Origin: Clostridia bacterium
Lineage (GTDB): Bacteria > Bacillota > Clostridia > Oscillospirales > Acutalibacteraceae
Assembly: GCA_017524165.1 (NCBI GenBank)
Contig: JAFWUH010000048.1
Span: 4,359-68,358, forward strand
Length of the DNA: 64,000 nt
Reading direction: 5' to 3'
Under the pieces are notes generated by a model that was given only the letters and a program-made list of their open reading frames with translations, did no database searches and was not told where the DNA came from. Shown in pieces: positions 21,854 through 64,000 of the stretch. How positions within the stretch are numbered: position 1 is the first letter of the stretch; every line of letters begins with the position of its first letter. The position numbers were made by a program, and so were the translations under genes.

Positions 21854-23812
21854 TTACAGCTTAACAACCTGTGTCCAGCCTTGTGTATTTAATACCGGAT
21901 AATCAACTTTTTCAAAAGAAATGCCAACAAGCAATTTTCTCATGCAAACCAAGTCGTCGGTATCGACTACGCCGGAACCGTCCAAATCAGCAACAGTCTC
22001 ATTGAAGGTAACCGTGTTGTCTGCCAAGTAAGCCTTAAAGCGGAGCAAGTCTTTGATGTCCACTGCATGATCCGCGTTTATATCGCCTTCCTCCAGCGGT
22101 ACAGACGGAATCGCCGCAATGCTGTCGATTCTCAAATAGCCGTTAGGAACGGTAGTGTCAATATAAGCACCGTCGGTAACCTGGAAGGTGAAACTCTTCA
22201 ACTGGGTGAAATCCAAAGCCGAAGCTGCCGCCAAATCCACCGTCATGGTGTACCATCCGGCAGTAGCGGTCTCCTCAACAGCGATATCGTTTAACATATA
22301 ACTATACGATTTGCCGAGGTTATCGGTCAAGGTTGCCTTGATATAATCGGCATAAGCGGTTGAAACTGTTTCCCACATATCCGGATAAGTCGGAGCATTC
22401 ATGAAACGAACCTTCCAGCTTAATCTGCCATGACGGCTGATATTTACCGGATTTTCAAAGGTGTACTTTAACGGACCGATCTTGCAGCTTCCGCCAAATA
22501 CCTGCACGGTGCCGCCGCTGAATCCGTTGGGATTGCTTGTCATATTTTCATGGTCTGCTACACCGTAATAGGTCCAGCCGGAGAGATCAGAACAGTCTTC
22601 GATTACCAGTTCTGCAACTGCCGCATAATCATAACCGTTCGGAGTTACTTTAGCAACGGTGATATTGATATTGTCAAATTTGTAAATTGTATTGGCAAGA
22701 TTGGTATCCCCGGCGCCGTTTTCATTCGTGTAAATAACGAAGGAAGAAATGTTGGTTAAATCCAAGCCGGAATTTTCCAACGAAAGTGCCACATGCCACC
22801 AGCTTGCATCAATATTGGAGAATTCCATATCCAGCAGGGAGAATTTCTTCGTATTGGTGCCGTCGCCCACTTCGACACCGATTTTATCAGAATAGGCTGC
22901 CAAAATATCGGTCATCTGGTCGGTCAGGGCGCCGACGCGCAGTGCCGTCATATCCCACTCCAATGTTTTGTATCCGTCCGCATTAATCGGATCCGCCAAA
23001 TTGTAGGTCAAGCGACGCAAAATACCGTAACCGCCTTCCAACATAACAGCGTTTCCGTTTCTGCCGGAAGAACTGTTGGTAATCGCGGCTGTACCGCTGT
23101 AAACCCAACCGGCGGTGTTTTCGCACGCACACAGCGCAATCGGATCTTTGCCCGGCTCCTGATAACCGGTAGCAACAATGTTATCTAAACGGATAACACC
23201 GTCCGAAACGGTGGATACAGTCGCGCCGTCGGTCGTTGCAAAGTAGAACGCCGTGATCGCACTCTTGTCAAAGGTTCCCATCGGCGTATTGGGAGCATCG
23301 ATTTGGACGCGGAAATGTACCCATTCCGAATTAGTAGCGCTGACTGTTGTAGTCATGGTCGACAGACGGAATACATTATAGTCCGTTGCCGAAGAAGAAA
23401 GCTTTAAGAGCATCTGGTTGTTACCGTTTGTACCGTAAGCCGCCTTGATTTGCTCCCACATGGTACCTGTTCCGCCATTGTTCTTATTTTCATAAAAACG
23501 AACATCCCACTCCAAATATTTGTAGTTGGATAAATCAAGCGGTGTTTCTCCGAAACTTAATGTTACGGTGCGGAAAGCACCGTAGTTTACCGCACAGCCG
23601 ATAGCCGAATCGGAACCGTAACCGTTGTTGTTAACATTTAACGTACCGCCGCCGCCGGTTTTGGTCCAACCGTCCAAAGAGCTGCAGTCATTGACCATTA
23701 ACGGGTCTTCACCAACCGCAGAAACGGTTAAAGCACCTGTGAAAATGGACGCGCAGAGAATTGCCAATGAAAGAGATAATGCCAGGATTTTGCTGAGTTG
23801 AATTGTTTTCAT
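21854..23812 (-). CDS. Secreted protein with three type-A CBM-like modules and a C-terminal dockerin
   Basis: Start moved to ATG 23812 (AGGAGGAAG SD) giving MKTIQLSKILALSLSLAILCASIFTGALTVSA. Three modules begin DCSSLDGW, CENTAGW and DCSDLSGW. Dockerin at the C-terminus. Confidence 0.85.
   Translation of the reverse strand: MKTIQLSKILALSLSLAILCASIFTGALTVSAVGEDPLMVNDCSSLDGWTKTGGGGTLNVNNNGYGSDSAIGCAVNYGAFRTVTLSFGETPLDLSNYKYLEWDVRFYENKNNGGTGTMWEQIKAAYGTNGNNQMLLKLSSSATDYNVFRLSTMTTTVSATNSEWVHFRVQIDAPNTPMGTFDKSAITAFYFATTDGATVSTVSDGVIRLDNIVATGYQEPGKDPIALCACENTAGWVYSGTAAITNSSSGRNGNAVMLEGGYGILRRLTYNLADPINADGYKTLEWDMTALRVGALTDQMTDILAAYSDKIGVEVGDGTNTKKFSLLDMEFSNIDASWWHVALSLENSGLDLTNISSFVIYTNENGAGDTNLANTIYKFDNINITVAKVTPNGYDYAAVAELVIEDCSDLSGWTYYGVADHENMTSNPNGFSGGTVQVFGGSCKIGPLKYTFENPVNISRHGRLSWKVRFMNAPTYPDMWETVSTAYADYIKATLTDNLGKSYSYMLNDIAVEETATAGWYTMTVDLAAASALDFTQLKSFTFQVTDGAYIDTTVPNGYLRIDSIAAIPSVPLEEGDINADHAVDIKDLLRFKAYLADNTVTFNETVADLDGSGVVDTDDLVCMRKLLVGISFEKVDYPVLNTQGWTQVVKL
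21923..22087 (-). other. Type-I-like dockerin module
   Basis: Duplicated Ca-binding loop plus helix: GDINADHAVDIKDLLRFKAYL ... DLDGSGVVDTDDLVCMRKLLVG. Confidence 0.75.
22112..23704 (-). repeat. Three tandem type-A CBM-like modules (protein-level repeat)
   Basis: Each has the shared layout D-C-x-x-x-x-GW ... GYG-x-[LF]-R ... Y-K-x-LEWD ... W-[VW]-H ... [FY]-x-x-x ... [LF]-DN-I. Confidence 0.65.
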
Positions 23813-23834
23813 CGTTCTTCCTCCTATTAAAATT

Positions 23835-26800
23835 TTACAGCCACCACGACTGTGATTGGGAAATATACCCACCGCTTCTCGAATACGGAATAATCCCGAT
23901 ATTGTTCGGCGGCGTGTTTACCGTGAGTTGTTTAACGCTGTCTGCAACCAAACGAATGCGTCCGTTTTTGTTGGTCGTGATTGAAACATTTTTTATCGGC
24001 AAAATAGAACTGGAAAGGTATAAGGAACCGCTGTTTACTTCAGCAATATGCGTTGTTTGTTCCAAATTATAATAGGTCATTTGGCAAACCAAAACCTTTC
24101 CGCCGTCTACTTGAATGGAAGCCGTACGCGGCTGACCCCATGCCTGTGTATTAAAGAGCGCCAGCGTTCCTGTTGCGGTACTGTTCATCACAATATGATG
24201 CATATCATCGGTAGCATTCATTGAAACCAATTCGGCATTGATCATTGCCACGCAATCTATTTCATGAACGACCAAGGCAGTTCTGCATCCGTCAGAACCG
24301 TGTCCGATGAAAACACCGTTGGTGCCGCCTTTCCCTTGTGAACGGAAAACCAATAAATCCTTTCCGCCGTATCCAAAGGTTCCAAGCACATGTTCCGAAG
24401 CATTATCGCCGAAAATCATGGCTTCCAAGGTCAGATTGATGGCATTGTTCAGCGCGTCGGCATTGGTCTCGCTTACGCTCAAAGTCTGGAAGTTTGCCCG
24501 CTTCCAATAATGCGGATTAAACTGAACATTTTCGACCCATCCGTTACTGTCGTTATTGCCGACAAAAATCCCCCTTCTTAACGGAGACCCGCTGACATAA
24601 CTGATATAGTGTCCATCAGACGGATTGGTGCCGAAATCCAACGCATTATACGAATTAATAAATACCGTATTAATCGCCCAGCAGTTTTGTCCGAGACTGC
24701 GTACGGTCCAGGGGTACGGAATAAAGTTTTCATAATTCTGTTCCGGATAGTAAAAACTGATTCCGTTCACGCCGGCGCCTTCTTGCAGGGAGATCAACGG
24801 CGCGGCATTTTCATTGTTTTTGCCCAAGGTGGTGCAAAGAACCGAGCCCGCCACAATCGAATGGGTCGGCACATTATAAATTCCCCGCAGTTCCACCCCG
24901 GTCGGCACGGTTAAGGGAGATGAAATATAGAACTCACCCAACGGGACATAAACCGTTCCGCCCGTTTGCGCGGCGGCGGCTAATGCCGACTGGAAAGCCG
25001 CAGTGGAATCGGTTCCGCTGACTGCGCCGTACTTGGTGACATCATATACATATTTTGAGGTCGGCGTCGGTACCGTGCGCCGATAGGTATGTGTGAAATC
25101 AGCAACCGGAAGATTCAGCGGTGTATCATCCACCAAAACAAATTTTTCCTTTCCGGCAGTCCGGGAGATGTCTTCAATAAACGGGAAGGTACATCCCAAT
25201 ACCGAAACCGATCCGGCATTTTGTTCCACTCGGACATGTTTGGTGTTCTGTGCAAAACTGCACTGCTGCAAACTCAAATTGCCGGCAGTCACCAAAACGG
25301 CATAATTCGTAACATCTTGGCAAGAAAAGTTGGAATTGGTTACTGTTACCTTTCCGTTATCTTGCGAATTCATCACAATCGGACAATTTACACTGCCGGA
25401 AAATGTTAGATTTGCGATCTCAAAACTTGCCATAAACTCCGGCTCAAATAAAAATCCGTTGGTACAGTCGGCAATCGAGACGCCCGTTAAGGCGTATCCG
25501 ATCGCATTGGTATACCGCACATCAAACGCCGTTGTGCAGTCGTGGATCGACAAATCAAATGCCTGACCGTTACTGCCGCGAACACGACCGTCGTCATTGG
25601 TATCAATATATTTTTCAAGCACGATACCACGGCTTACTCCCGAAATATCCACCTGATAAAAATACTCCCAGTCCGAACGCTGGATATAAATTCCGGTGGC
25701 ATTTTCACGGAAATATTGACGAATATTGGCGGCATTCGTTGAACTGACCGGAGAGCAGGAATTCCCGATCAAATATTCCGGGCTGATATGAATGTTTTCC
25801 AGTCTCCCGATATCCGTTACATTATTAATGCGAATCGCTTCATTTAACGAAGAAATATATACATTTTTTAAATAGTGCAATTCACTCCACGCCGTGGCGG
25901 CGTCATAGCCGACGCTGCCGCCCAGGATCGTGAGATTCATAACTGTATAGCTGTCACTGCCGACCGCAGGCAACTCGGCAATCGTCGAGCTGTATTCCGC
26001 CGTCAATCCTTTGGCGGAATCAGGATAGACAATGGTCATATTCCGAATACCGCCGCCGTTTTTTAAATTAAAGAACGGATCGGTGCATTTTGAAATATTT
26101 CCGGTTTGTACCATTAAAATCGTACCGCAACTGGCGGGTGCCGCCTCGTCCGGAGAGCGCCATTCTCCGCGCAACGTCACGCCGCTCGGAATGGTCATCG
26201 GCTTTTCACAGCGATACATGCCGGACGGCAGATATACCACACCGCCGCCCTTTGCTTTGGCGGCGTTTAACGCCCGTTGGATTGCCACAGACGAATCTCT
26301 GCTTAAATTGTTGACCGGTACGGCAAAATCACGCACCGCGTTGTAAATAGCAATGCAAAGCCCGGTACCGTCATCATACTGGAGATCCACCGCTTGCGGC
26401 TCGCCCGCTTTATAGTTTCTTTTTACCGATGCCGGCACATCTTCAACCGAAACAATCGGCGTATTATCCGTAATTTGCCGGATCCCCTGCAATTGATCGG
26501 TTGCCTCTTGCGCCGCGGTTGACGCGTAAATATCGTCCATGGAGATAACATAACCGCCGCACAGATCATCTTCTGAATAAAAGACGGAAGCGTTTCCGTT
26601 ATAATCGGTCGCACAGATATACGCACGGAACGCCAATTTTGTATTGGGTGCAAGCGACGAGAAATAGTGCGACAACGGAAGCACAAAAGCCAGCGTCTCT
26701 GCGTCATTCGGTAATGCATAAACCGTTCCGGCAGAATAATTACCTAAAAGCTTTGCATTGCCGAATTCTACCGGTTCCCCGACAAAGTTGGCGGCAACGC

Positions 26801-29661: not shown

Positions 29662-32223
29662 TCACTTCAACAGTAATGTCTTGATCTCTTTCGGAGAGAA
29701 TTGAAGCGTAACGGTTTGTGCGGTTACCGCCATCGGGGCACCGGTCGCTTCTTCCAGCAAATTCGCTTCGCAAACCGTCGTCAATCCCTGCGGCAGACGC
29801 AGGGAAACGGCGTTTTCGGTCTCGCGCAAATTGTAAAGACGCAAAACGAGCTGATCGCTGTGATCCGCTTTCTTAAAAGCGGTATTCCAAACACCGCTGC
29901 CGTCGATCGAGAACAAGCCGTTTTCAAATGATCCGTCACAGACCTCCGGATGGCGGATCTGATGCGTATACAGATCCCCCGAAGCAAACTGCAATGCCGA
30001 AATTTCAAATTGCTCAAACTCATCGGCGGCGCCGACATAAATCTCATACGCCGCGGTATTTACACCCTTGCATTGTGCGTCAGGCGTCGGGAAATCGCCC
30101 CAGTCGCCTAACTGATCCACACAACGAAGCAGATTCAGGCAAAGCGTATTACTGCCGTCACGCAACACCTCATATTCATACAGCGCGCGTGTGCCGATCA
30201 ACAGGGAATCAGTACTTCCCTGCAATCCGACAAAGCTCTGTGCTCTTTGTTCGTTGGTCGGCCATTTCCACGCCGGACGGGTTGCAATCGTACGGCGCAC
30301 CACATCAAACTGACCGTGTGCCAAAACATCGGATGTGTCGATTTGATTACGGAAAATTGCTCTCAAACGGTGACACTCACTGGCGTTATCCATTTGAACC
30401 GAAACCGCGATTTTACGGCTGAATTTTGTCAGCGTAACCTCAGTTTTAATGCCAAACGGCACCTTCTTGTCACTGTAACAATTTTGTTTACGGTCGAAAC
30501 TTTCAGGCAAAAGCAATTCCTGCGCAATGCCGAAAGTGACGAAATCTTTACCGACATGTTCCACCGTGATCTCGGCTTTTTTGCCCTCGGTGGTCACGGC
30601 TTCACCGCCGTTGCCTTTATAGAGATACTCATCCCCGATATCGGCGGTGTCTTCATAAATATTCAAGCCGTCATAGACCTTGCCGGTCTTTTTATCGGTG
30701 ACGGTCAGACTGCCGTCCTCTTTGATTTGCAATGCAATCCATTCATTTTCGGCACCCTGTGCGGTATGCGCCATCTTTTCAAGATCGGCTTTCGGTACGG
30801 TTGCATAGTAAACACGGTAACCGAACGCCGGAACATCTTGCGCCGCAAAGCGGAAGATATAACGGTTGACATACTGCACCACGCGGAACGCATCATCCGG
30901 TAAAGTATAGGTAAAGGTATGCGGGAACACCTGCGGATTTTCAGCAACTGTATTGCCGTTTTCATCCACCAGGACCAAAGATTCACAACCGTCTTCTTCC
31001 GGCACATCGACCACCGCCGTCACGATATCGGAGCGGCAATAAGCCGTTTGGTTAAAGACAGCCACAGGATAACCGTTATCGGTCTTTACCGACAACTTCT
31101 GCGCTACAACAGCCACCGATTCATCAATCATGGAGGTAGCACCCTCAATGACTTCGCCGAAACGAGTCATCATATCGCTGTGCACGATATCAACGCTGCA
31201 CCCGCAAATTGAGTCATGCGCATGGTTTTCCAACAGGTGTTTCCAACTGAATTTCAGATAATCGGACGGATAGTCCGCACCGAACAGATACGCTGTCGCG
31301 CCAAACGGTTCGGCGAGGCGTTCTAAGGTGTTCTGTGCCGTCCAATTCTTTTGTTTTAAATAGATTCGGGAACTTGCGGTCGAAATCAACAAACTGATTC
31401 CCGCGGTATTTTGACCGGTCATTTCTTCCGCAACCACCGGATATTGATCCTGATTCTTCTTAATCTCGTTGATATAATCGGTCAAATTACTGTGAATGAA
31501 GCACACATTGTCATCGGTCACCGCGTTTAATGCTTGCAACGCTTCGCCGAGATCCAACTGAACCGGCTGATGGTCACTGCCGTTCATGCCGAGGTAGCAT
31601 CCGCCGCTTTTAGAAGCGTTACGGAAGGCACCCAACATTTTATCGGCGCGCGCTTTTGCCTCTTGCTCGTTGCAGGGAAGCTCAGCGGCATTATTGTACC
31701 ACGGTGTGAAATGACCGCCAACCACCCGACTGCCGTCGGGTGACTGCCAAATGATTTCCGCTGTGTTTTCTACCCCTCGGCCGAAAACAACAGCATCGAT
31801 CCCGCACTTCTTGAAAATTTGCGGCATCTGCGAAATATTACCAAAGCTGTCAGGAAGGTAGCCGATTTTCTGGACTTCTACCCCAAAATCGGCTCCTGTT
31901 TGCATCCCTAACACCATATTGCGGACATTGGCTTCATCACTGGTCAGAAATTCATCCTGTAACACATACCACGGTCCCACTTTGATCCTGCCGGCGTCGA
32001 TCAACCTTTTCAAGCGTTCCCACATATAGGGCTTGATCTTCAGGTAATCTTCCAGCACAATCATCTGTCCGTCGAGGTGATAAAACTTGTATTCCGGATC
32101 CTGTTCCATTTTCTCAATCAACGCATCCATCAATTTGATCAAACGGAAACGATGTTTTTCAAAAGACATATACCACTCTCGATCCCAATGGGAGTGCGGT
32201 ACAACATGGATAATTTCTTTCAT
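29662..32223 (-). CDS. GH38 alpha-mannosidase (MngB/SpGH38-like), cytoplasmic
   Basis: N-terminal metal-site motif VVPHSHWDREWY, then GPWYVLQDEF and LPDSFG. 853 aa, no signal peptide. Confidence 0.85.
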   Translation of the reverse strand: MKEIIHVVPHSHWDREWYMSFEKHRFRLIKLMDALIEKMEQDPEYKFYHLDGQMIVLEDYLKIKPYMWERLKRLIDAGRIKVGPWYVLQDEFLTSDEANVRNMVLGMQTGADFGVEVQKIGYLPDSFGNISQMPQIFKKCGIDAVVFGRGVENTAEIIWQSPDGSRVVGGHFTPWYNNAAELPCNEQEAKARADKMLGAFRNASKSGGCYLGMNGSDHQPVQLDLGEALQALNAVTDDNVCFIHSNLTDYINEIKKNQDQYPVVAEEMTGQNTAGISLLISTASSRIYLKQKNWTAQNTLERLAEPFGATAYLFGADYPSDYLKFSWKHLLENHAHDSICGCSVDIVHSDMMTRFGEVIEGATSMIDESVAVVAQKLSVKTDNGYPVAVFNQTAYCRSDIVTAVVDVPEEDGCESLVLVDENGNTVAENPQVFPHTFTYTLPDDAFRVVQYVNRYIFRFAAQDVPAFGYRVYYATVPKADLEKMAHTAQGAENEWIALQIKEDGSLTVTDKKTGKVYDGLNIYEDTADIGDEYLYKGNGGEAVTTEGKKAEITVEHVGKDFVTFGIAQELLLPESFDRKQNCYSDKKVPFGIKTEVTLTKFSRKIAVSVQMDNASECHRLRAIFRNQIDTSDVLAHGQFDVVRRTIATRPAWKWPTNEQRAQSFVGLQGSTDSLLIGTRALYEYEVLRDGSNTLCLNLLRCVDQLGDWGDFPTPDAQCKGVNTAAYEIYVGAADEFEQFEISALQFASGDLYTHQIRHPEVCDGSFENGLFSIDGSGVWNTAFKKADHSDQLVLRLYNLRETENAVSLRLPQGLTTVCEANLLEEATGAPMAVTAQTVTLQFSPKEIKTLLLK

Positions 32224-45056: not shown

Positions 45057-45071
45057 TGTCATGCCTCCTAT

Positions 45072-46490: not shown

Positions 46491-49400
46491 TTACTCTTTT
46501 TTCTTTTTGAAGAGTAAAAAGCCAAGCACGCCGGCCGCAATCACGGTTACGCCCAAAGCGATTCCGGTCGCAATGACCGCGCGAACCAAGCCCTTCGGGA
46601 ATGCCGATAAGGCCTCGGCACGAAGACCGCCGTTCAACTTATTACCGACATTCTTGCCCGGCACGACGCTGCCGCCGATGCTGATGGTTTGACCGCCGGT
46701 TGCGGTTGCACTCTGTACCCCTGCTGTGGTGACCTGCAGATTATCCAGATTGATGACGCAATCCGGAGATCCGGGCTCTGCGCCGATGAAGTAGATACGG
46801 AAATAATTCATTGCTTTGTTATTCAGTCCGCCGCGCGCCTGATTCTGCGGTTTATCCAAATTAAAGCAGAAATGGTACCATTTATTTCCAACATCGCCGG
46901 CATTGAAATCTGCCGCCAGTTCGGGGCAAGCCGTCAGGATGGTAGACTTCATGTAACGGTTGGACTCAACATCGCAGGTGCCCGAGGAGGTCAATTCGAC
47001 CATCCATCCGGTTGTCGTGTTAAGGAAGGTAATATCCGAAAGGAACAGATCGAATTGCAGATAGTGATAATCCGAAATATCAATCGGCTTTGCCGGACGG
47101 TAAACGAGTTCTTTCAGAATACCGTTCTTCGCCGTAACGGTAATGGAAGCGTCACCCTCGGTTTTATTGTTTTTATCCGGCATAACTTCCTGACCGGAAG
47201 CCGACCAACCCGCCGCGCTGTCCGCGTTGTTGATGATCAGGTAATCCTTGGTACGGATCACATCGGGTTGTTTCTCACCCTTTGTGAATTTCATGTTATC
47301 AAACTTCACGGTGTAATCCGGCGTACCCTCTTTTACTTGAACAGAGTAGAAACGGAAATAGTCAAATCCGGTCTTATCCAAACCGCCCTTGACAGAAGCG
47401 TGCGGACGATCCAGATTCAGCTTGAAGTGATACCACTTGTTTCCGCCCTTGCCGCTTTCAACATCATCCGCAAACGAGGGGGAAGCTTCCAACATGGACG
47501 ACTTGGTGTACCGGTTGGATTCCTTGTCACAAACCCCGGCGGAGGTCAACTCAAACATGGTGCCCTCGCAGGCTTTAAACCAAGACAAATGAGAGAAGAA
47601 GACATCGAATTCCAAATACTGATAATCCGAAATATCCAACGCTGCTTTCGGTTCGAAAGAAATTTGCTTTAATACGCCGCCTTTAGCAACTGCGGAAATA
47701 GAACTGTTTCCTTCTGTTTTTTGTGCAAAATCCATGGAAACGGTCGTTCCGGAGGCTTTCCAGCAGGAGTCAGTTTCGGCATTGGTCATCCACACCGAGT
47801 TATCGTCGATCTTCTTACCGTAGGAAAGATCCGGAGAAATCACATTGCCGCCATTGTTGCCCTCTCCATTGGTGCCTTCGCGGGTAAACTTCATATTATC
47901 CAAGCGAACATCAAAATCTGATGTAGTTTGCGGAGCGCCGATCGCGAAGAAGCGGAAATAGTTCAATTTTTGGGCATTCAAACCACCGCGTGCGGTTGTT
48001 TGCGGAGCAGCCAATTTCAATTTAACATGATACCAGCCCGGTTGCGTAGAACCTGCCACACCTGCCGAATAGAGTTCCGGCACATTGTCGCGCAGATAAC
48101 CCTTCATATAACGGTTGGATTCGTTATCCGAAGATCCGGAAGAGGTCAACTCGAACATGATGCTTTCCGAAGTATTGAACCATTCCATATTTGAAGTATA
48201 TAAATCAAATTCCAAATAATCGTAGGAAGAGACATCTAACGAAGTACCCGGAGAATAGACCAACTGCTTCAACACACCCTTCGGTGCCGTAGTACCGACA
48301 GAGGCTTTTCCCTGTGTAAAGAGCGCGGTATCGTTTTGAACGGTAGAGCCGGAAGAACTCCAACCGTTTTTATTTTCAGCATCGTTGAACCACATATTGC
48401 CGTTTTTATCCAAGCTTCCCGGCGTGGTATCTTCGATCGCCTCGGCATACACATCCGTTTCACTGCCGGGTGTCGGCAATGTATCGGCACGCAAGGTCAT
48501 TGCGTCAAAGAGCACGATACCATTTTGATTATCCTCTACGCAGATTTGTAAATCCGCCAAGGTCTTCAAAATCGTAGTACTGTCGGGCAAAACCTTGCCC
48601 TCTGCATTCACCAAACGCTTGAAGTTAAAGGTGTATTGCTGATAGTCGCCGGCGTTGATTTCATAAGCCGTTGACAGCGAAGATCCGGTCACCGCGGTTG
48701 CATAGAAGGTTTCGCCTCCCGCAACCAGTCGAACCGACAGTTTCTTCGCGCGAACATCCGGGTTCTTCGCATAAAGCGAAATACCGGTATAGTGCTGATA
48801 CTGTTTGATCATTCCGCCGTAGTTCAAGACCGGCGCGAGCACTGCGGTGTCTGTACCGCTGATCTCATAGGAGAGTTTTGCCGCGGCAATACCCTCATAA
48901 CGGCTTTCCGCATCGGCTGTAACAACCGCATTCGCAGAAGTGCTGAAGGTCGGCTTGAATCCGGCGTCCAAAGAAGTCAACGCTTCCCATGTTGTGGCAC
49001 TGTCGCAGTAGCCCCAATCGGTTGAAAGATCATAGATTGACGCCACTTTGTCACTGCGATAAGGAACTGCAGGAATGCCCAACGAGTTTGCCAAATTGGC
49101 AACCATGTTGAAGGAGGACCATGCATAGGTCACCGCAACCGGTGCGGCAACGGCGTCACTCCAAACCTCTACGGTATTCGGCGAGGTGATCTTGGCATTT
49201 GCTTTGACAAAAACGCGGGAAGCGTCCGCAACAGCAAAGCCATGCAAGGTATCAGATGAATCATTGATCTTTAAGGTGTCGCCGACATTCTTAAAGGTCA
49301 AAACCGCTTTGTTGCCGTTCATTTGAACCGAAGCAACACTCGGTGCGGTAAATCCGTCGGCATTGCCGACGCCGTATACCCCGGCAAGTACCGCCGCCGC

Positions 49401-52400
49401 AAAACGGTCGGCAACATCTTTCTTGCTGTTGGGGTGGATCGGGTCGGGGTTATTGATCGGTGGATCTTTATATTGCAGGGACAAATCGTAAATCGGGATT
49501 TGGATCAACTTCGAGGATGATTTTTCGGCAACACGATTCAACATTTCAGCAAAGGTTGCCAAAACCGTAGTATAATCGTTTGCACGGATGCTGGCGTTGT
49601 TATAGGGCGCCAGATGTGCACAGACAAACGGCATATTACCGTTTTCAAAGCCGAAAAGTTTGCTGTAAGAGTCGATCAATCCGTCTAACGCATATTCATA
49701 GAAAGTATTATACCCGTCTTCGTCGGCATACTTGACATTGCTTTCGCCCTGATACCAAAGGACGCCGCTGATTTCCACACCGGCAAGCGGCGCGATTTTC
49801 GCGTTAAATAAGGTAGTCAAATAGGTCCAGTTAGAGGTCGTTTGATCCAACTGTTCCGCGGTTTTATAGATACCGCGACTCTGCAGAACGCTCTTGACCT
49901 GCGGCGTATTTTCAATAACCTCCCGCGGCATCCACGATTCAATGACCGATGCGCCCTTGGCGGTATTGAGGAACCCGACCGGGACATTCAACTGTTGCTG
50001 CAGTTCTAAAGACATATAATAGGCAATTGCGGAGATATATTTTACATCGACCGCGTTGGAGCCGTCCGCCCACTTGGCGCCTTCAATTTCACGAACCGGA
50101 GAAGAAGGCAGAATCGCCGTTACACCGCCCGGAACCAACGGAATATCAAAGAAGCGTACCTTTTCATTGAGCGGGATCAGAGAATAATCGTAATCCTTGA
50201 TCGTTTGCAACACGAAATATTCCATGTTGGACTGACCTGCGGCAAGCCACAATTCACCGATCAGAATATTCTCGATCGTTTCGGTCAATTTATCTTCGAC
50301 ATAAATTTTAATGGTATACGGGGTATACCCACCGGCGCGAGCAGCAAAAGCCAAAGAGAAACTGCCATCGCTCTGTGAAACGGTATTGACTGTCTCCAAA
50401 ACATTTGTGCCGTCCGACAATTCGGCTTTAATATTCTGTCCCGCCGTCTCCACATTACCGAAAACATTCATCGGCTTGTTTTGTTGGAACATCATGCCGT
50501 TGCTGAAGTAGGAAGAAACGATATGTTCCTCTTTCAAATTGGTGATCGCAATATCTTCAATGCGGACATTAAAGGTATCATCACCCGCGGCACGGCTGTA
50601 GAAACGGAAATAATTAATGTTGGCAAGATTCAAGCCGTTATCGTTCGCCGCATTGGAAATCAACAACTTTAAGTTGTTCCAACCGGACTTCAAGCCGAGC
50701 TTCGGCACCGACCAGTTAGCTTCCTGCTTATCGCAATTTCCCGAGGAGGTCAATTCGATCTGACCTTCATTGGTGAATTCCAGAATATTGTCACTACCGT
50801 CGGTGTTTTCAATATAAATCCGCATGGTCAAATACAGTTCATTCTTCTGATAAGCTGATAAATCCAGCGAGAACTGGTTCAGCACAAAGGAGAAGGTGCC
50901 GGTAGTATTGTTCTTCTGCATACTGCCCGGGATCTGCCAAACGCCCTCCTGCGATACCTCGGACGGCTGACCTTCGCTCAAAACCGCAATGACATTGTCA
51001 ATTTTAAAGATGGCATCCGGCAAGGTGGTATCCAACGGTGTAGTCGGCAGTGTATAGAAACAGAAGGTCTTGAAGTTAGTCAAATTGACCTTGCTGTCAG
51101 ACGGCACTTCCACCGATGCATGATACCAGTTGTTCCCGCTTTCGGTGATGGTCATATCCGAAAGGGTGAACCGTTCGGTCTGACTGCCGTCACCGATTTC
51201 AACGCCGATATAGTTTTCATAAGACGATTGGATGGCGTCCCACATTTTAAAGGAAGCGTCATTATTTTTAAAGCATTGAAAATCAAATTCAAACTGATGG
51301 TATTTGGATAGATCCAAACCGGAAGTATCGGTATAAGTTAATTTTCTCAACGCGCCGTAACCGGTGTAAACATAAACCGAATTTCCGTTCAAACCGGAGG
51401 TGTTCAGTTGCATATTCGCCGCATTGCCCGAATAAGACCAACCATCCAACGAATTACAGTCACTGACGGTAATGGATTCGTCCACCACCACATTTTCCTT
51501 ATCAAAATGCGCTACCAAATTATCCAAACGATAGATCGCCGTATTGACCGACTGATCTAATGTTGCCGTCGTATTCGTATAAACCGAGAACGAAGCAAAT
51601 TTAGAAAGATCAAGCTTTCCGGTTGAGGAAGTGGGATCCAAAGCGTTGATGGAAACATGATACCAACAATTTCCAAGTGCTTCCACCTTCCACTTGTTCA
51701 AACCGTAGGTGGCGGTCACGGTACCGTCGGAAATTTCGACTGCGATTTTATCGCTGTATGCCGCTGTGACCTCACTCCACATATCGTAGGCAGTGTCGTT
51801 CTGCTTCATACACATCATGTCAAATTCCAAGGTGTTATATTTAGACAGATCGACCTTATCCGAAAAGGTCATTTTACGCAATGCGCCGTAACCGGTATAA
51901 ATATTAATGGCACTATTGGTCATACCGTTGGTAGAAATGCCGACATTTCCAATGTTGCCGCCGTATCCCCAGCCGGTCAGATCCTCACACTGAGAAAGAA
52001 CCAAATCGTCCGTTTCCTGCGGAACTTCGGGTTCCTCCTCTTCGGAACGAAGGTTGTGCGCCACAATGTTATCCAGACGAAGGTGACCGTTGCGTACCGA
52101 AGCGCTGACTCCGCCATCTTTGGTGGAAAAATGGAAAACGGTCATTTTGGTCATATCAAAACTGCCGGTTGTGCTCGACGGATCGTCCAAATTGATCGAG
52201 AAATGATACCACAACGGGCTTTCGGTATTCTGCGCCACCGTCATTTTAGACAGACGGTAAACATTATAATCCGTTGCAGAAGAACCGATTTTGACATAAA
52301 CATCGTCATTATAAGTGGTCTTGATTTCATCCCACATACCGGCATTACCGCCCGTGTGCATCATAACATCCCATTCGATGTTCTGATAGGGAGAAATATC

Positions 52401-52655
52401 TAACGGCGTTGCCGCAGTGTAATCGCAATCGCGAAAGGCGCCACTGTTGATATCGCAGGCTATGGCACTGCCGGTGCGGCCGTTCGCATTGATTGCCAAA
52501 TTATTGCCGGAGGTTTTGGTCCATCCGGTTAAATTTTCACAATCACTGATAGTTAATGTATTCGGCAAATCATCCGTTGCCCATGCAGGGATCATGGTGA
52601 GCCCGGACAGAACAATGGCAATTGCACAAATAATCGCTATGACTCTTTTATTCAT
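46491..52655 (-). CDS. 2054-aa cell-surface multi-module protein: signal peptide, 3 type-A modules, 1 type-C module, SASA/DUF303-type SGNH esterase, further beta-sandwiches, 3 type-B modules, C-terminal TM anchor
   Basis: AGGAGG SD. Signal peptide MNKRVIAIICAIAIVLSGLTMIPAWA. Esterase motifs GELWLAAGQSNMEY, LWYQGESN and DPIHP. C-terminal LVRAVIATGIALGVTVIAAGVLGFLLFKKKKE. Confidence 0.85.
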   Translation of the reverse strand: MNKRVIAIICAIAIVLSGLTMIPAWATDDLPNTLTISDCENLTGWTKTSGNNLAINANGRTGSAIACDINSGAFRDCDYTAATPLDISPYQNIEWDVMMHTGGNAGMWDEIKTTYNDDVYVKIGSSATDYNVYRLSKMTVAQNTESPLWYHFSINLDDPSSTTGSFDMTKMTVFHFSTKDGGVSASVRNGHLRLDNIVAHNLRSEEEEPEVPQETDDLVLSQCEDLTGWGYGGNIGNVGISTNGMTNSAINIYTGYGALRKMTFSDKVDLSKYNTLEFDMMCMKQNDTAYDMWSEVTAAYSDKIAVEISDGTVTATYGLNKWKVEALGNCWYHVSINALDPTSSTGKLDLSKFASFSVYTNTTATLDQSVNTAIYRLDNLVAHFDKENVVVDESITVSDCNSLDGWSYSGNAANMQLNTSGLNGNSVYVYTGYGALRKLTYTDTSGLDLSKYHQFEFDFQCFKNNDASFKMWDAIQSSYENYIGVEIGDGSQTERFTLSDMTITESGNNWYHASVEVPSDSKVNLTNFKTFCFYTLPTTPLDTTLPDAIFKIDNVIAVLSEGQPSEVSQEGVWQIPGSMQKNNTTGTFSFVLNQFSLDLSAYQKNELYLTMRIYIENTDGSDNILEFTNEGQIELTSSGNCDKQEANWSVPKLGLKSGWNNLKLLISNAANDNGLNLANINYFRFYSRAAGDDTFNVRIEDIAITNLKEEHIVSSYFSNGMMFQQNKPMNVFGNVETAGQNIKAELSDGTNVLETVNTVSQSDGSFSLAFAARAGGYTPYTIKIYVEDKLTETIENILIGELWLAAGQSNMEYFVLQTIKDYDYSLIPLNEKVRFFDIPLVPGGVTAILPSSPVREIEGAKWADGSNAVDVKYISAIAYYMSLELQQQLNVPVGFLNTAKGASVIESWMPREVIENTPQVKSVLQSRGIYKTAEQLDQTTSNWTYLTTLFNAKIAPLAGVEISGVLWYQGESNVKYADEDGYNTFYEYALDGLIDSYSKLFGFENGNMPFVCAHLAPYNNASIRANDYTTVLATFAEMLNRVAEKSSSKLIQIPIYDLSLQYKDPPINNPDPIHPNSKKDVADRFAAAVLAGVYGVGNADGFTAPSVASVQMNGNKAVLTFKNVGDTLKINDSSDTLHGFAVADASRVFVKANAKITSPNTVEVWSDAVAAPVAVTYAWSSFNMVANLANSLGIPAVPYRSDKVASIYDLSTDWGYCDSATTWEALTSLDAGFKPTFSTSANAVVTADAESRYEGIAAAKLSYEISGTDTAVLAPVLNYGGMIKQYQHYTGISLYAKNPDVRAKKLSVRLVAGGETFYATAVTGSSLSTAYEINAGDYQQYTFNFKRLVNAEGKVLPDSTTILKTLADLQICVEDNQNGIVLFDAMTLRADTLPTPGSETDVYAEAIEDTTPGSLDKNGNMWFNDAENKNGWSSSGSTVQNDTALFTQGKASVGTTAPKGVLKQLVYSPGTSLDVSSYDYLEFDLYTSNMEWFNTSESIMFELTSSGSSDNESNRYMKGYLRDNVPELYSAGVAGSTQPGWYHVKLKLAAPQTTARGGLNAQKLNYFRFFAIGAPQTTSDFDVRLDNMKFTREGTNGEGNNGGNVISPDLSYGKKIDDNSVWMTNAETDSCWKASGTTVSMDFAQKTEGNSSISAVAKGGVLKQISFEPKAALDISDYQYLEFDVFFSHLSWFKACEGTMFELTSAGVCDKESNRYTKSSMLEASPSFADDVESGKGGNKWYHFKLNLDRPHASVKGGLDKTGFDYFRFYSVQVKEGTPDYTVKFDNMKFTKGEKQPDVIRTKDYLIINNADSAAGWSASGQEVMPDKNNKTEGDASITVTAKNGILKELVYRPAKPIDISDYHYLQFDLFLSDITFLNTTTGWMVELTSSGTCDVESNRYMKSTILTACPELAADFNAGDVGNKWYHFCFNLDKPQNQARGGLNNKAMNYFRIYFIGAEPGSPDCVINLDNLQVTTAGVQSATATGGQTISIGGSVVPGKNVGNKLNGGLRAEALSAFPKGLVRAVIATGIALGVTVIAAGVLGFLLFKKKKE
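46728..48407 (-). repeat. Three tandem type-B CBM-like modules (about 175 aa each)
   Basis: Shared motifs GVLKQ-[LI], S-x-Y-x-YLEFD, MFELTS-[SA]-G-x-x-D-x-ESNRY-x-K, WYH-[VF]-K, NYFR-[FI]/DYFRFY and DNMKFT. Confidence 0.7.
49371..50267 (-). other. SASA/DUF303-type (sialate O-acetylesterase-like, SGNH) carbohydrate esterase domain
   Basis: GQSNM encoded at 50223-50237 (checked against the nucleotides). LWYQGESN. D-P-I-H (DxxH) near the domain end. Confidence 0.7.
50979..52556 (-). repeat. Three tandem type-A CBM-like modules
   Basis: Modules begin DCENLTGW, QCEDLTGW and DCNSLDGW. They share TGYGALRK-[ML]-T, DLSKY-x-x-[LF]-EFD, WYH and [IY]-[YF]-[RK]-[LI]-DN-[LV]-[VI]-A. Confidence 0.7.
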
Positions 52656-52670
52656 TTTGTCCTCCTACCC

Positions 52671-53501
52671 TCACGAGCGTTTATTCTTACGAACAAACAA
52701 GATAATCATCACAACAATGACAGCCACAACAACCGCTGATACAGCAATTTCAACAATCAGGAGTGTTTTCAACTGACCGCTCAGCGCCGCGTTGGTGTCT
52801 TCTCTTTTTACCACATAAACGCTGGCTTCCTCTGACTCTTTCGTGTTCTCTGTTTTACTGGCATCCTTTTCTTCCTCTTCAACCGCCGGTTTATAGTTAG
52901 AAGGATTATTGGTAAAACGCATATTGTCGATACGAACGGTATAATCCGGCGTCGTGGTGATCGGATCTACCGTATAAAAACGGAAGTAGTTAAAATTGGC
53001 TTTATCTAATTTTCCGTTTGCCGTTCCCTGCGGGTTATCCAATTCAAATACAAAGTGCCACCAGTTTTGCCGGTCTTCGATCGAACCGGTTGAGAACAGA
53101 TTCTTCAACACTTTTTTCATGTAACGGTTGGATTCCTTATCGCAGGTGCCCGAGGAGGTCAACTCAAACATGACCGAACCGCACTCGGTAAACCAGGTGA
53201 TATCGCTGAAATAAATATCAAATTCCAAATAGGAATACTTGGAAGCGTCCAACGGACTTTCCGGTGTATAAACCAGCTGGTTCAACTTGCCGTTGATGGC
53301 TGTTGCGCCAATCGAACCGGTTCCCTCGGTGCAATTTGATCCGTCGGTTTCCAACGCATCCATACCCTGACTGTTTGCCGCCCAATTGGCGGAACTGTCG
53401 CAATTATTTACGATCAGATCATCGGTACCCTCGGCAAATGCCGGCATACCGAGTGAAAAGATCAGGAGTATCACAGTTAAAAATACCGTAAACTGTTTCA
53501 T
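52671..53501 (-). CDS. 276-aa surface protein: signal peptide, one type-B CBM-like module, acidic linker, C-terminal TM anchor
   Basis: GGAGGAAAAA SD. Signal peptide MKQFTVFLTVILLIFSLGMPAFA. Module motifs KYSYLEFD, MFELTSSGTCDKESNRYMK, NWWHF, NYFRFY and DNMRFT. TM LLIVEIAVSAVVVAVIVVMIILFV followed by RKNKRS (nt 52692-52763). Confidence 0.85.
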   Translation of the reverse strand: MKQFTVFLTVILLIFSLGMPAFAEGTDDLIVNNCDSSANWAANSQGMDALETDGSNCTEGTGSIGATAINGKLNQLVYTPESPLDASKYSYLEFDIYFSDITWFTECGSVMFELTSSGTCDKESNRYMKKVLKNLFSTGSIEDRQNWWHFVFELDNPQGTANGKLDKANFNYFRFYTVDPITTTPDYTVRIDNMRFTNNPSNYKPAVEEEEKDASKTENTKESEEASVYVVKREDTNAALSGQLKTLLIVEIAVSAVVVAVIVVMIILFVRKNKRS

Positions 53502-59301: not shown

Positions 59302-59339
59302 CTTTTCGTCCTCCATGCCCAACGAATTTTGTTTTATAA

Positions 59340-60893: not shown

Positions 60894-63800
60894 TTAAGAA
60901 GCGTAACCACTCATAACCCTCTTCATGTGAACCAAGCCACGAACATCCAAAGAAGATTCATTATCATTGCGCTTTGCAGCTTCAAAGAAGTATCCCTGCA
61001 ACGAATTATTGCCAAGCAAGTGCTGACGGAAGCGAACCAGGTCGGTTGCGCCGCGAACACCGTCGCCGTCCAGATCACCGTAAACGATGGCGTAAACGGT
61101 CTTGGTACCGTTGCTTGCATAGTCGCCGGTACCAATTGCGGCACCTGCCGCCAAAGCGGTATTGCCACGATAGACGGTTACCGAGGAGGCAAATCCATTT
61201 GCCGAAAGGAACTGCGAAATGGTCTGACCAAGCGTTGCTTTTACCGAAAGAATTTCGGTTGCAATTGCAGTACCGAGACGAATATCATCCAAGTGGATCG
61301 TACCGGCTGTGTTAACAGTAAACTTCAACACATTGGAGTTGACGGCGGTTAAGGCGTTCGCCGCGGAAACAGCTGTAGTTCCGGCAGCGGTTGTCTTTAA
61401 GTTGGTCAAATCAAAGGTGTAGGTGGTAAATCCGCTGTTTGCCGGCAAAGTAACGGTTGTAGCGCCGTCTGTAGTGCAGACAAAGTAGCTGGAATTGCTG
61501 ATATTCAAAGAGAAGGTCTTCGCGGTATTATCATCGTTCTTAACCTTTACAGACAAGTATCTGTAGTTGCCGAGTTTGTTTGCCAACATGGTCTTCAGAC
61601 CGAGTACCGGGCCCACTGCGGCGGTTCCGCTGGAGGATACAACCTTTACAGAAGAATTACCCTGCGCCTTGACGCCGGTATCAAATGTAACGGTAGCGGT
61701 ACCGGATTTCTTATCCCATGTTGCAACACTTTCGCCTTTGCAGTTTGCGCCGGCGCTGGTGTTGTCAGCGATCCAAATGGTCGAATGATCCGCATTCATC
61801 CAGTCGTTGTCACCGACATGAACCGATGCAACTTCATCCGAACGGAACGGAACGACCGGCAAACCGAAGGAATTCTTCAGGTTCGCGTTCATATTGAACG
61901 AACTGAACGCATAAGCGACTGCAACCGGATTGTTGATCAACGGGCTGTAAACTTCAACCGTATCGTTGGCAATGATCTGAGCATAGGCATTACCGAAGAC
62001 ACGGTCACTGCCGCAGATGGTAAAGCCTTCCAAGTCGGAATTTACATCGCGCAAAGACAAGCCGGAGCCGACATTGTCAAATTTCACACGGATCTTATTG
62101 CCAACAACCGTCATGCTCTTGAAGGTGGCGGCGGCGAATCCGGGAGTGCCCTGATTATAGAATTTGCTCAAAATAGCAGCGGCAAAATTCTTTCCAACCG
62201 GCTCTTTTGTGCGCGGGTGGATCGGGAAGTTATCCGAGCAATATTCCAAAGACTGGTCATAAATCGGAATCTGAACCATCGAATTCGGATGAGCGGCGCA
62301 TGCTTTAGACATGGCTTCGGACAACATCGGAATGGTAACATCAAAGTCATTTGCACGAACATTGTTGTAGTTATACGGTGCAATGTGGGCAAAGACAAAC
62401 GGCATATCGCCGGCGTTAAAGTTAAAGAGAACGCCCCAATCTTCTGCCATCTGTTTTAAGGCCGCTTCATAGAAGCTGTTGGTTCCGTTTGTGTCGGCAT
62501 ACTTGATATTGCTTTCGCCCTGATACCAGAGAACGCCGGCAATATTCATACCGCCAAGCGGCGCCAATTTGGAGTTGTAAAGTGCTGTCATACTGTTCCA
62601 GTTACCGGCAACCGCCATTTGCTGTTCGGTGCGATACAAGCCTTTTTTCTGCAAGATACTCTTAACAGTTGCATTGTTTTCGATGCTTTCGCGGGACATC
62701 CAGGTTTCAATAACCGAGCTGCCGCGGCTGACATTCAGGAAACCGACCGGGACATTTAAGGTCTTACGCAGTTCTAAAGCGGTGTAGTATGCAACCGCAG
62801 AAGAATAAATAACATTGGTAAAGGTGCTGCCGTCTGTCCAGTGAACTTCACGCATCTGCGCCGAAGAAGCACTGGTATCAGGTTCAACATCATAATACGG
62901 TGTCGCAGCAATGGTGCTGTTTGTGCCGCCCGGAACAGAGGGTTCCATCATGACGCGGATATATTGGTCTGCTAAATTTTTAGATGTAAACTCAGCCATT
63001 CTGCCGGCAAGATTTGTTGCTTCAAAAGAAGTACCGAGGAAGTATTCCATGTTGGACTGACCGGAAGCTAACCACAGTTCACCGATCAAAATGTTGCCGA
63101 TTTCTTTAACCACAGTACCGTCCATCAATACTTTAATAGAATAGTTATCATAGCTACCGGCACGGGCAGGTAATTTTACTTCCCAATTGCCGTCCGTGTC
63201 AACGGTGGTGTTGGCAGAGCTTACCAGCGTATTTGCTTTGTAAAGCTCAACTCTCACGGTAGAGCCGGTGCCACCCACACCCCAGAGGTTCATGGTCTTG
63301 TTCTGCTGGAACATCATGTTATCGGCAAAGAAGGACGGCATGACTGCTTTTTCCTTCTCATTCGTGAGATACATCTGTTCTACGCGAACGGTGTAAACAT
63401 CGGTATTGCCCGAAACCGGATTCAGATAAAAACGCATATAATTGACATCCGAAAGGGACAAGCCGTTATCATTGCTCGCGCTATCCAAAGCCAGATAAAG
63501 ATTGTTCCAACCGTCATGCAGATTCAATTTACCCAAAGACCAGTTTGCTTCATTTACATCCGAACCGCCCGAGCTGGTCAATTCTAACTGACCGCCGGAA
63601 AGCAGATTGCCGGTCTGACCGGGATTGGTCTTGTTCTCAATATAGATCTTTGCAACCAACCAAAGCGTGCTCTTGGTATATGCGGAAAGATCATAGGAGA
63701 ATGTATTCGAGCAAACATAGTTTGCGCTGGTGATGGTTTTCTCGTTCGGAGAATCAATCAAATTCCATTTCTGCGGTCCCGAAACAACAACGGTCTGTTT

Positions 63801-64000
63801 CTTGGTGGAAGCACAGAGGTTATCAATACCCATAAAGCCGTTAGCAACATCGCTGTTAATTGTGGTGCCTTGCGGGCAAACGGCAATGGTGAAGGTGGTT
63901 AACGCACTCGGATTAAAGCCGTTGTCCTGCGTAAAGGTATCCAGGTTGACCGCCATTTTGTACCAAGCGGCGGAAGAAGAGGAAACGACCAATTTGTCTA
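60894..64000 (-). CDS. Surface multi-module protein (N-terminus beyond the right window edge): type-A module end, type-C module, SASA/DUF303 esterase, beta-sandwiches, C-terminal dockerin. Paralog of the central part of 46491..52655
   Basis: The frame stays open to nt 64000. GQLELTSSGGSDVNEANW, VNYMRFY, GELWLASGQSNMEYF (GQSNM at 63048-63062), LWYQGESN, and dockerin GDLDGDGVRGATDLVRFRQHLLG. Confidence 0.85.
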   Translation of the reverse strand, partial: DKLVVSSSSAAWYKMAVNLDTFTQDNGFNPSALTTFTIAVCPQGTTINSDVANGFMGIDNLCASTKKQTVVVSGPQKWNLIDSPNEKTITSANYVCSNTFSYDLSAYTKSTLWLVAKIYIENKTNPGQTGNLLSGGQLELTSSGGSDVNEANWSLGKLNLHDGWNNLYLALDSASNDNGLSLSDVNYMRFYLNPVSGNTDVYTVRVEQMYLTNEKEKAVMPSFFADNMMFQQNKTMNLWGVGGTGSTVRVELYKANTLVSSANTTVDTDGNWEVKLPARAGSYDNYSIKVLMDGTVVKEIGNILIGELWLASGQSNMEYFLGTSFEATNLAGRMAEFTSKNLADQYIRVMMEPSVPGGTNSTIAATPYYDVEPDTSASSAQMREVHWTDGSTFTNVIYSSAVAYYTALELRKTLNVPVGFLNVSRGSSVIETWMSRESIENNATVKSILQKKGLYRTEQQMAVAGNWNSMTALYNSKLAPLGGMNIAGVLWYQGESNIKYADTNGTNSFYEAALKQMAEDWGVLFNFNAGDMPFVFAHIAPYNYNNVRANDFDVTIPMLSEAMSKACAAHPNSMVQIPIYDQSLEYCSDNFPIHPRTKEPVGKNFAAAILSKFYNQGTPGFAAATFKSMTVVGNKIRVKFDNVGSGLSLRDVNSDLEGFTICGSDRVFGNAYAQIIANDTVEVYSPLINNPVAVAYAFSSFNMNANLKNSFGLPVVPFRSDEVASVHVGDNDWMNADHSTIWIADNTSAGANCKGESVATWDKKSGTATVTFDTGVKAQGNSSVKVVSSSGTAAVGPVLGLKTMLANKLGNYRYLSVKVKNDDNTAKTFSLNISNSSYFVCTTDGATTVTLPANSGFTTYTFDLTNLKTTAAGTTAVSAANALTAVNSNVLKFTVNTAGTIHLDDIRLGTAIATEILSVKATLGQTISQFLSANGFASSVTVYRGNTALAAGAAIGTGDYASNGTKTVYAIVYGDLDGDGVRGATDLVRFRQHLLGNNSLQGYFFEAAKRNDNESSLDVRGLVHMKRVMSGYAS
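60906..61079 (-). other. Dockerin module (second repeat degenerate)
   Basis: GDLDGDGVRGATDLVRFRQHLL ... RNDNESSLDVRGLVHMKRVM. Confidence 0.65.
62157..63092 (-). other. SASA/DUF303-type SGNH esterase domain
   Basis: GQSNMEYF, GVLWYQGESN and FPIHP, collinear with the esterase domain of the 2054-aa protein. Confidence 0.7.

Follow-up and report, generated by a model that had tools for sequence, protein, structure and literature searches.

A divergent family of CBM30/CBM11-like candidate glycan-binding modules with a conserved polar signature in giant surface proteins of uncultured gut Clostridia

What is the role of the repeated modules, marked by the motifs ELTSSG and NYFRFY, in the large secreted esterases of uncultured gut clostridia? 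The question is raised by a 64,000-nucleotide stretch of the genome of an uncultured Clostridia bacterium from the rumen (GenBank assembly GCA_017524165.1, contig JAFWUH010000048.1, positions 4,359 to 68,358; hereafter the window), in which an earlier note had recognized 6 copies of the motif family: 3 in tandem in a 2054-residue protein with an esterase domain, 1 in a membrane-anchored protein of 276 residues, and 1 upstream of each of 2 esterase domains. We describe these modules as predicted beta jelly rolls of the superfamily of carbohydrate-binding modules (CBMs) that includes CBM30 and CBM11, and as members of a large and divergent sequence family. With a probability of about 0.6, the family, which is missing from the domain libraries searched, comprises noncatalytic glycan-binding modules, its polar signature being a candidate binding patch. 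The general concept of a beta-sandwich CBM on surface carbohydrate-active enzymes is already known and is unchanged by these results. The sequence family and its signature are undescribed in Pfam, NCBIfam, the PDB, and the searchable literature, where no described family with a known ligand covers the window modules and the string ELTSSG is absent from the ~8 million papers searched; CAZy families without a structure and the 3 CBMs of the xanthanase RuGH5a (see below) lie outside this comparison.

All 6 copies were found on the minus strand at the places assigned to them before, and they divide into 4 type B and 2 type C modules (Table 1). A hidden Markov model (HMM) profile of the 6 copies matches the B copies with independent E-values (i-E) of 1e-78 to 1e-82 and the C copies with 1e-40 to 1e-42; pairwise identity is 40% to 46% among B modules and 27% to 32% between B and C. 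C1 is shortened at its N-terminus, its match to the family profile starting only at about position 34-57. DNA repeats, with spacings of 555 and 600 nucleotides, are restricted to the motif-coding segments, which points to conservation at the protein level and not to recent duplication. The motif itself is less uniform than first described: ELTSSG varies, B2 reading ELTSAG, and the single spacing D-x-E-[SA]-N-[RW] has to be replaced by D-x-E-S-N-R for type B, D-x-x-E-A-N-W for type C, and D-x-x-E-x-x-W as the family consensus.

The same proteins contain motif-less relatives, the type A modules, which had been suggested to form a branch of one jelly-roll superfamily with B and C, and this proved correct. 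The 6-copy profile also matches the 3 type A modules of the 2054-residue protein (i-E 1e-7 to 1e-10) and 3 more in ORF 21854..23872, the jelly-roll models fit this relationship, and A and B/C belong to one superfamily because an hhalign comparison of the motif-less type A alignment with the motif-bearing alignment returned a probability of 99.9% (E 7e-32, 160 columns). The window end truncates a further type-A-like fragment, and 2 additional profile matches are weak (i-E ~1e-3).

Structure prediction places the modules among the CBMs. The AlphaFold2 model of the type B module of the 276-residue protein, based on a 19-sequence alignment, has 12 beta-strands (predicted local distance difference test score, pLDDT, 92.4; predicted template modeling score, pTM, 0.88), and the AlphaFold model of a type C module reaches a pLDDT of 88.9. 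CBM11 (Clostridium thermocellum Lic26A-Cel5E; PDB 1V0A, 6R3M, 2LRO) is the best structural match of both models. In Foldseek comparisons with the PDB, it heads the ranking for type B (6r3m and 1v0a; E 5e-7, template modeling score 0.62), followed by the N-terminal CBM-like domains of GH50 agarases, CIA30, CBM30, CBM4, CBM28, and CBM8, whereas ranks 1-10 for type C are all CBM11 or CBM30 (CBM11 5e-5, CBM30 1e-4). The Foldseek superposition on the CBM30 jelly roll scores E 1.5e-5 with the type B model and E 1e-4 with the type C model, identity in the latter case being 17% to 19%. According to these models, B and C modules are beta jelly rolls of the CBM30/CBM11 superfamily, and the module is a discrete, separately folding unit of 140-180 residues appended to a carbohydrate-active enzyme. 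The likeness to CBM11 is confined to structure: identity in the structural alignment is only 12% to 16%, the CBM11 family gave no Pfam match to the modules, and no PDB sequence match to 1V0A or 6R3M was obtained. CBM11, itself classed as a type B CBM, binds a single glucan chain on its concave sheet (PMC5849603, PMC5686792).

At the sequence level, the nearest described relative is CBM30 (PF21582; C. thermocellum Cel9D-Cel44A/CelJ; PDB 2C24, 1WMX), a beta jelly roll of similar size. An hhalign comparison of the 590-domain family profile (see below) with residues 35-180 of 1wmx, a fragment reassembled from search outputs, gave a probability of 94% (E 1.2e-7, 132 columns; confidence is low in the N-terminal half of the alignment). 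The regions in common are D-x-S-x-Y...YLEFD, the G-W-x-H-V-x-x-P-L strand, and the last 2 strands, and type B modules have the E, D, H, and W residues of CBM30 on strands D and G. Certain family members outside the window reach the Pfam threshold of CBM30: one module of the family protein P0077 scores 28.2 bits (cut-off 27 bits), and the 10-copy protein P0035 sums to 66.8 bits. Among 44 diverse members, the Pfam model of CBM30 was matched weakly by 5 (best E 2e-5), SGBP_B_XBD (the xyloglucan-binding domain of SGBP-B; PF18329) by 6, and the agarase CBM-like domain (PF17992; GH50, PDB 4BQ2 and 5Z6P) and the "CBM-like" domain III of polysaccharide lyase family 4 (PL4; PF14683) by 1 each, the PL4 model also matching 10 of 43 whole mid-size proteins. 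These last 3 kinds of match are all below or near threshold and none falls on a window module, although the GH50 N-terminal domains rank high in the Foldseek comparison of the type B model. The window modules, searched both as whole proteins and singly, gave no module match in Pfam or NCBIfam; PF21582 in particular was not matched by the 6 B/C modules searched singly with their homologues at E<=10, nor by whole proteins at E<=1. PDB sequence searches with a 6-sequence profile, a 44-sequence profile, and one CBM30-like member yielded nothing significant (best CBM30 E 0.34). CBM30 also differs from the new family in extent, the latter being far larger and typically arranged in tandem arrays within giant surface proteins.

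The size of the family was taken from an exhaustive search in which the profile was run against 1.84 billion cluster representatives, since nearly all matches of a word-indexed protein search were shorter than 340 residues and most were orthologues of the 276-residue protein. It recovered 1,635 proteins (clusters at 50% identity) at E<=1e-3, of which 1,092 remain at E<=1e-10, and a single protein had as many as 18 matched stretches. From the top 183 proteins, 738 domain copies were extracted, and the 590 near-full copies (effective number 554) were aligned. The 276-residue protein is 100% identical to an NCBI entry named [quoted passage not shown]; it has more than 26 orthologues of 271-291 residues, each unnamed or "hypothetical," and occurs on assembled metagenome contigs labeled XIEF21 (ENA). 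Close relatives come from metagenome-assembled genomes (MAGs) of Oscillospiraceae, Ruminococcaceae, and Acutalibacteraceae from rumen, horse faeces, and rabbit. Among 25 giant family proteins, recognized partners include GDSL/SGNH esterases in 6, SASA domains in 2, a GH5 domain in 1, beta-helices in 2, and cohesin plus dockerin in 2.

The 590 aligned domains define a family signature of E89, S92, G94, D97, E/S100, and R150, numbered after the module of the 276-residue protein. The first 5 positions are conserved at 73% to 91% (E89 86%, S92 91%, G94 80%, D97 87%; position 100 is E in 73% and S in type B) and R150 at 88%. All 6 residues co-occur in 366 of the 590 domains, and the table of E89 by R150 reads 472 / 26 / 46 / 46. 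Conservation extends to C10 (73%), D/E11, W16, G36 (94%), D61, and Y73 (86%) in the N-terminal half, to L90, S93, and position 103 (W in 68%, Y in type B) around the hairpin, to G122, W123 (99%), and position 124 (N in 87%, W or Y in type B), and to N147, Y152, and D168 (93%) in the C-terminal part. The earlier note had taken the Cys/Asp/Glu/Asn cluster after ELTSSG for a ligand- or metal-binding loop. Its polar residues are indeed conserved and covarying and, by analogy, would sit on an outward sheet face, whereas the Cys is present in only 16% of the 590 domains; a purely structural role of these residues, as a salt bridge or Ca2+ site, may apply instead.

Mean-field direct-coupling analysis of the 590 domains gave clean, antiparallel coupling ladders that agree with the predicted secondary structure. 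With the strands labeled D (beta6), E (beta7), F (beta8), G (beta9), H (beta11), and I (beta12), the beta6-beta9 and beta6-beta12 ladders belong to one sheet (B-I-D-G of the canonical jelly roll), and the beta7-beta8 hairpin, beta7-beta11, and beta8-beta10 to the other (C-H-E-F); couplings to the N-terminal strands are too weak to show which of them flanks strand H. YLEFD maps to strand D, MFELT to E, SNRYM to F, WYHF to G, NYFRFY to H, and RIDNMRFT to I. F88, L90, F149, F151, and position 103 are hydrophobic in 96% to 99% of domains and thus belong to the core, E89, T91, position 100, and R150 being hydrophobic in 3% to 9%; judged by this periodicity, alternate residues of the block strands form the hydrophobic core, as in CBM30. 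Y148 and Y152 are in phase with R150 and therefore face outward with it despite being aromatic. The strongest direct couplings in this region join E89 to position 100 (3.9) and to R150 (2.45), T91 to Y148 (2.3), G94 to Y148 (2.1) and N147 (2.0), S92 to N147 (1.8), and D97 to R150 (1.2). From the sequence pattern, we infer that the outward residues Glu89, Thr91, Glu/Ser100, Tyr148, Arg150, and Tyr152, together with the turn Ser92-Ser93-Gly94-x-x-Asp97, make up one contiguous polar and aromatic patch.

Where this patch would lie is suggested by CBM65 (Eubacterium cellulosolvens Cel5A), which has the same sandwich topology. The concave, ligand-binding sheet of CBM65 has the strand order beta2, beta8, beta4, beta5, and the location of its binding site is conserved with CBM30 (PMC3576085). 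We read these strands as C, H, E, and F, which by analogy would make the E-F-H sheet of our modules the concave sheet; comparison with CBM65, CBM30, and CBM11 thus suggests that the signature is on the concave face, the S-S-G-x-x-D turn probably being at one end of it. CBM65 was retrieved by none of the searches and differs in its chemistry, binding through 5 aromatic residues where the new family has a charged cluster and 2 tyrosines. The concern voiced with the original description, that the motifs might map to the hydrophobic core of a known domain, turned out to be half justified: YLEFD, WYHF, NYFRFY, and DN-x-FT are core strands as in CBM30, and the polar signature is outside the core. 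The family-specific feature is therefore only ELTSSG-x-x-D-x-(x)-E plus the Arg of NYFRFY.

The modules occur in a conserved arrangement. The 2054-residue protein comprises, in order, a signal peptide, 3 A modules, C1, a CE20-like esterase region (carbohydrate esterase family 20), a beta-rich stretch, B1-B3, a linker, and a membrane helix, and the gene immediately upstream encodes the 276-residue protein, made up of a signal peptide, a single B module, an acidic linker, a membrane helix, and a basic tail. In 5 related MAG loci, the gene of the giant esterase likewise has that of the small anchored protein as its immediate upstream neighbor; in a sixth (L006) the order is kept and the esterase is split into 2 genes. 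Esterases of the related loci carry 1-3 A, 1 C, and 3-4 B modules. B1, B2, and B3 form separate orthologous groups, with 58% to 74% identity to positional orthologues vs 40% to 44% between paralogues (for B1, the first B modules of the esterases from 5 related MAG loci are 58% to 71% identical). This clustering with positional orthologues indicates that the triplication is old and that each position is separately constrained. The second esterase protein, which continues past the window end, has C2 before its SASA domain and a weak, subthreshold dockerin-like match at its C-terminus (Dockerin_1 E 0.17).

On the glycan-binding reading, the modules would bind a glycan without catalyzing. The network of Arg150, Glu89, Asp97, and Glu100 would hydrogen-bond sugar hydroxyls, Tyr148 and Tyr152 would stack on sugar rings, and the N-terminal Cys-Asp, the E/Q-Gly loop, and Asp168 would probably provide the structural Ca2+ site that this fold usually has. 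The N-terminal A and C modules would steer the CE20-type acetyl-esterase to its polysaccharide, and the membrane-proximal B1-B3, together with the separate single-B anchored protein, would hold the glycan or oligosaccharide at the surface near the neighboring ABC-importer binding protein. Several points weigh against this interpretation. Retained by most of more than 1,000 divergent clusters and in up to 18 tandem copies, the polar residues resemble a structural motif more than a specificity-determining site. CBM30 lacks E89, S92, G94, D97, and R150 in the profile alignment, so the signature cannot borrow the known binding residues of CBM30. The exposure of E89 and R150 is deduced from coevolution and residue periodicity and the placing on the concave face from analogy, and covariation of highly conserved columns possibly reflects, in part, subfamily structure and not contact. 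Among 43 mid-size family proteins, recognized catalytic domains are few and esterases number 0. Finally, a long polysaccharide may not reach B modules within ~45 residues of the membrane anchor.

A rival possibility is that the modules are structural stalk or spacer units that project the esterase from the membrane through the wall, with E89/R150/D97/E100 forming a cross-strand salt-bridge clasp that stabilizes the E-F hairpin and contacts no ligand. A near-invariant signature in a very diverse family, the long tandem arrays, the many family proteins without a recognized catalytic domain, the position of the B modules next to the C-terminal membrane helix, and a C-terminal hydrophobic anchor in 47 of 149 family proteins (by a crude pattern search) would all suit such a role. 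We nevertheless consider it unlikely, as almost all of the nearest relatives in fold and sequence bind glycans (CBM11, CBM30, SGBP-B XBD, and the agarase CBM-like domains); columns 84, 99, and 101, which share the face of the signature and lie beside it, are highly variable (0.45-0.6 bits), a pattern fitting a binding face; the separate orthologous identities of B1, B2, and B3 would be needless in a mere spacer; and one gene of a conserved pair encodes a stand-alone anchored protein with a single B module. Folds of this class often have calcium sites, and S92, D97, E100, E89, and N147 could instead be a site for Ca2+ or another metal at the E-F hairpin, either structural or ligand-contacting as in CBM35, CBM36, and CBM60. 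The 3 carboxylates, Ser, and Asn (67% to 91% conserved) are mutually coupled, as would be expected; however, Arg150 lies right opposite Glu89 and has couplings to both D97 and position 100, which would be unusual at the center of a metal site, the type B Glu is shifted by 1 residue (D-x-E-S), and the couplings indicate a more conventional candidate Ca2+ site elsewhere (D11, E35-G36, and D168), so that this assignment appears quite improbable. Least plausible, with little chance of being right, is a role in protein-protein contacts like that of cohesins, which are also jelly rolls, for example with the small anchored B protein docking to the B array of the esterase or to other surface proteins. 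The conserved pairing of the small anchored protein with the giant esterase and the dockerin-bearing proteins of the window would be in line with it, yet the window modules gave no Pfam match to cohesin (PF00963), neither model has a cohesin among its 50 best Foldseek matches, and type A or C modules are present in the dockerin proteins of the window themselves. We also rejected a catalytic jelly roll like those of GH16 or PL7, since neither set of 50 matches includes one and tandem arrays of up to 18 copies speak against catalysis.

Defining the family would provide a candidate new CBM family for CAZy, a means to annotate multikilobase genes in herbivore-gut metagenomes, a concrete mutagenesis set (E89, S92, G94, D97, E100, R150, Y148, and Y152), and an aid in finding the polysaccharide targets of Firmicutes CE20-type esterases. 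In uncultured Oscillospiraceae and Ruminococcaceae from the rumen and the horse and rabbit gut, a large part of the giant "hypothetical" surface proteins consists of modules of this family. A more speculative idea, which we hold to be very doubtful, is that the E89/R150/D97/E100 patch with Tyr148 and Tyr152 reads a single chemical feature that many substrates share, for example an O-acetylated or anionic sugar. The module would then be a decoration reader that travels with SGNH/CE20 esterases, and the single-module anchored protein would be a Gram-positive counterpart of the surface glycan-binding proteins of Bacteroidota, passing oligosaccharides to the adjacent ABC importer.

Table 1. Positions of the modules and associated features in the window
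Feature	Position	Strand	Remarks
2054-aa ORF (open reading frame)	46491..52655	-	3 A, C1, esterase, B1-B3
B1-B3 tandem	46722..48404	-	aa 1418-1978 of 2054-aa ORF
Type B module B1	47877..48404	-	aa 1418-1593 of ORF 46491..52655; HMM i-E 2e-78
B1 motif ELTSSG	48135..48152	-	
B1 motif NYFRFF	47946..47963	-	
Type B module B2	47277..47804	-	aa 1618-1793; HMM i-E 2e-80
B2 motif ELTSAG	47535..47552	-	
B2 motif DYFRFY	47346..47363	-	
Type B module B3	46722..47249	-	aa 1803-1978; HMM i-E 2e-78
B3 motif ELTSSG	46980..46997	-	
B3 motif NYFRIY	46791..46808	-	
C-terminal membrane helix of 2054-aa protein	46512..46595	-	followed by KKKKE; ~45 residues past B3; read from translation
CE20-like SGNH/SASA acetyl-esterase region	49038..50534	-	Pfam SASA 2e-8; PDB 7kmm 1.7e-40, 9h4u 2.9e-38
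Type C module C1	50535..50960	-	aa 566-707; immediately upstream of CE20-like esterase; HMM i-E 7e-42
Three type A modules (motif-less relatives)	52065..52562, 51543..52013, 50991..51479	-	family-profile i-E 3e-18 to 4e-12
276-aa protein	52671..53501	-	immediately upstream of 2054-aa ORF
Single type B module of 276-aa protein	52905..53426	-	ORF 52671..53501; HMM i-E 6e-82
Membrane helix of 276-aa protein	~52698..52775	-	
N-terminal Cys-Asp example	53399..53404	-	C34-D35 of 276-aa protein
Second esterase ORF	60894..63992	-	continues past window end
Type C module C2	63354..63782	-	upstream of second esterase, ORF 60894..63992; HMM i-E 8e-40
Three more type A modules	22199..23707	-	ORF 21854..23872, dockerin at its end (Dockerin_1 2.8e-6)
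Two GH38	29662-32223, 56338-59322		

Two further features of the family lie outside the signature. Throughout the family, a lone Cys with Asp or Glu as the next residue (x-x-C-[DE]-x-x-x-G-W) occurs near the module N-terminus, the Cys being present in 73% of the copies that have this position, without a conserved Cys partner in any other column; the type A modules at 50991..52562 have the counterparts ISDCE, LSQCE, and VSDCN. This Cys covaries with the E/Q-G36 loop and, together with D168, the motif may mark a structural Ca2+ site. A thioester or isopeptide adhesin, considered on account of the lone conserved Cys10, was rejected given the lack of a conserved Gln, Lys, or Asn partner and the CBM-type jelly-roll fold. 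Covariation in the family is strongest on the other sheet, where positions 69 and 125 (4.0) and 71 and 125 (3.7) of strands D and G are coupled. Positions 69, 71, and 125 (in "YLEFD" and "WWHF" of the module at 52905..53426, for example) are E, D, and H in type B and CBM30 and H, W, and E in most other members, and these triads adjoin the nearly invariant Y73 and W123. This region may represent a second functional surface.

Between the esterase and the B array, positions 48405-49037 (aa ~1207-1417 of the 2054-residue protein) encode a further beta-rich module ("...WGYCDSATTWEAL..."), which has a counterpart at aa 756-908 of ORF 60894..63992 with a marginal family-profile match (i-E 1e-3); a fourth module type of great divergence may be represented here. 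In ORF 21854..23872, the dockerin that follows the 3 type A modules is of type I, and the protein is without a catalytic domain; a cohesin partner for the dockerin proteins should exist elsewhere in the genome.

The surrounding locus encodes, besides the 2 GH38 alpha-mannosidases, a GH3 enzyme, a GH42-like protein, a DUF5696 protein, sugar-binding proteins with permeases, a GntR/LacI-type regulator, and 2 proteins with 2 beta-helix domains each. The 2 GH38 enzymes and 2 secreted acetyl-esterases (46491-52655 and 60894-63992) resemble the xanthan-gum locus of Ruminococcaceae UCG13, which reportedly also has 2 GH38 enzymes and 2 carbohydrate esterases. The GH5 xanthanase of that locus, RuGH5a, is said to require 3 unclassified tandem CBMs for activity. 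Among the window ORFs scanned with Pfam, no match to GH5, PL8, GH88, or GH94 was found.

Of the other large proteins, the 1548-residue ORF at 5181-9827 (minus strand) has no Pfam match at E<=1e-4. A 959-residue ABC solute-binding protein (42183-45062, minus strand) has an N-terminal extension of ~500 residues with weak CBM35 and Golvesin_C matches, which looks like 2 tandem CBM-like modules. The 2 beta-helix proteins (53520-56327 and 23835-27557, both on the minus strand) are large and secreted, with 2 PF12708 (pectate-lyase-like beta-helix) stretches each, an arrangement familiar from GH55-type enzymes, and one of them is a conserved upstream neighbor of the small anchored protein (locus L009).

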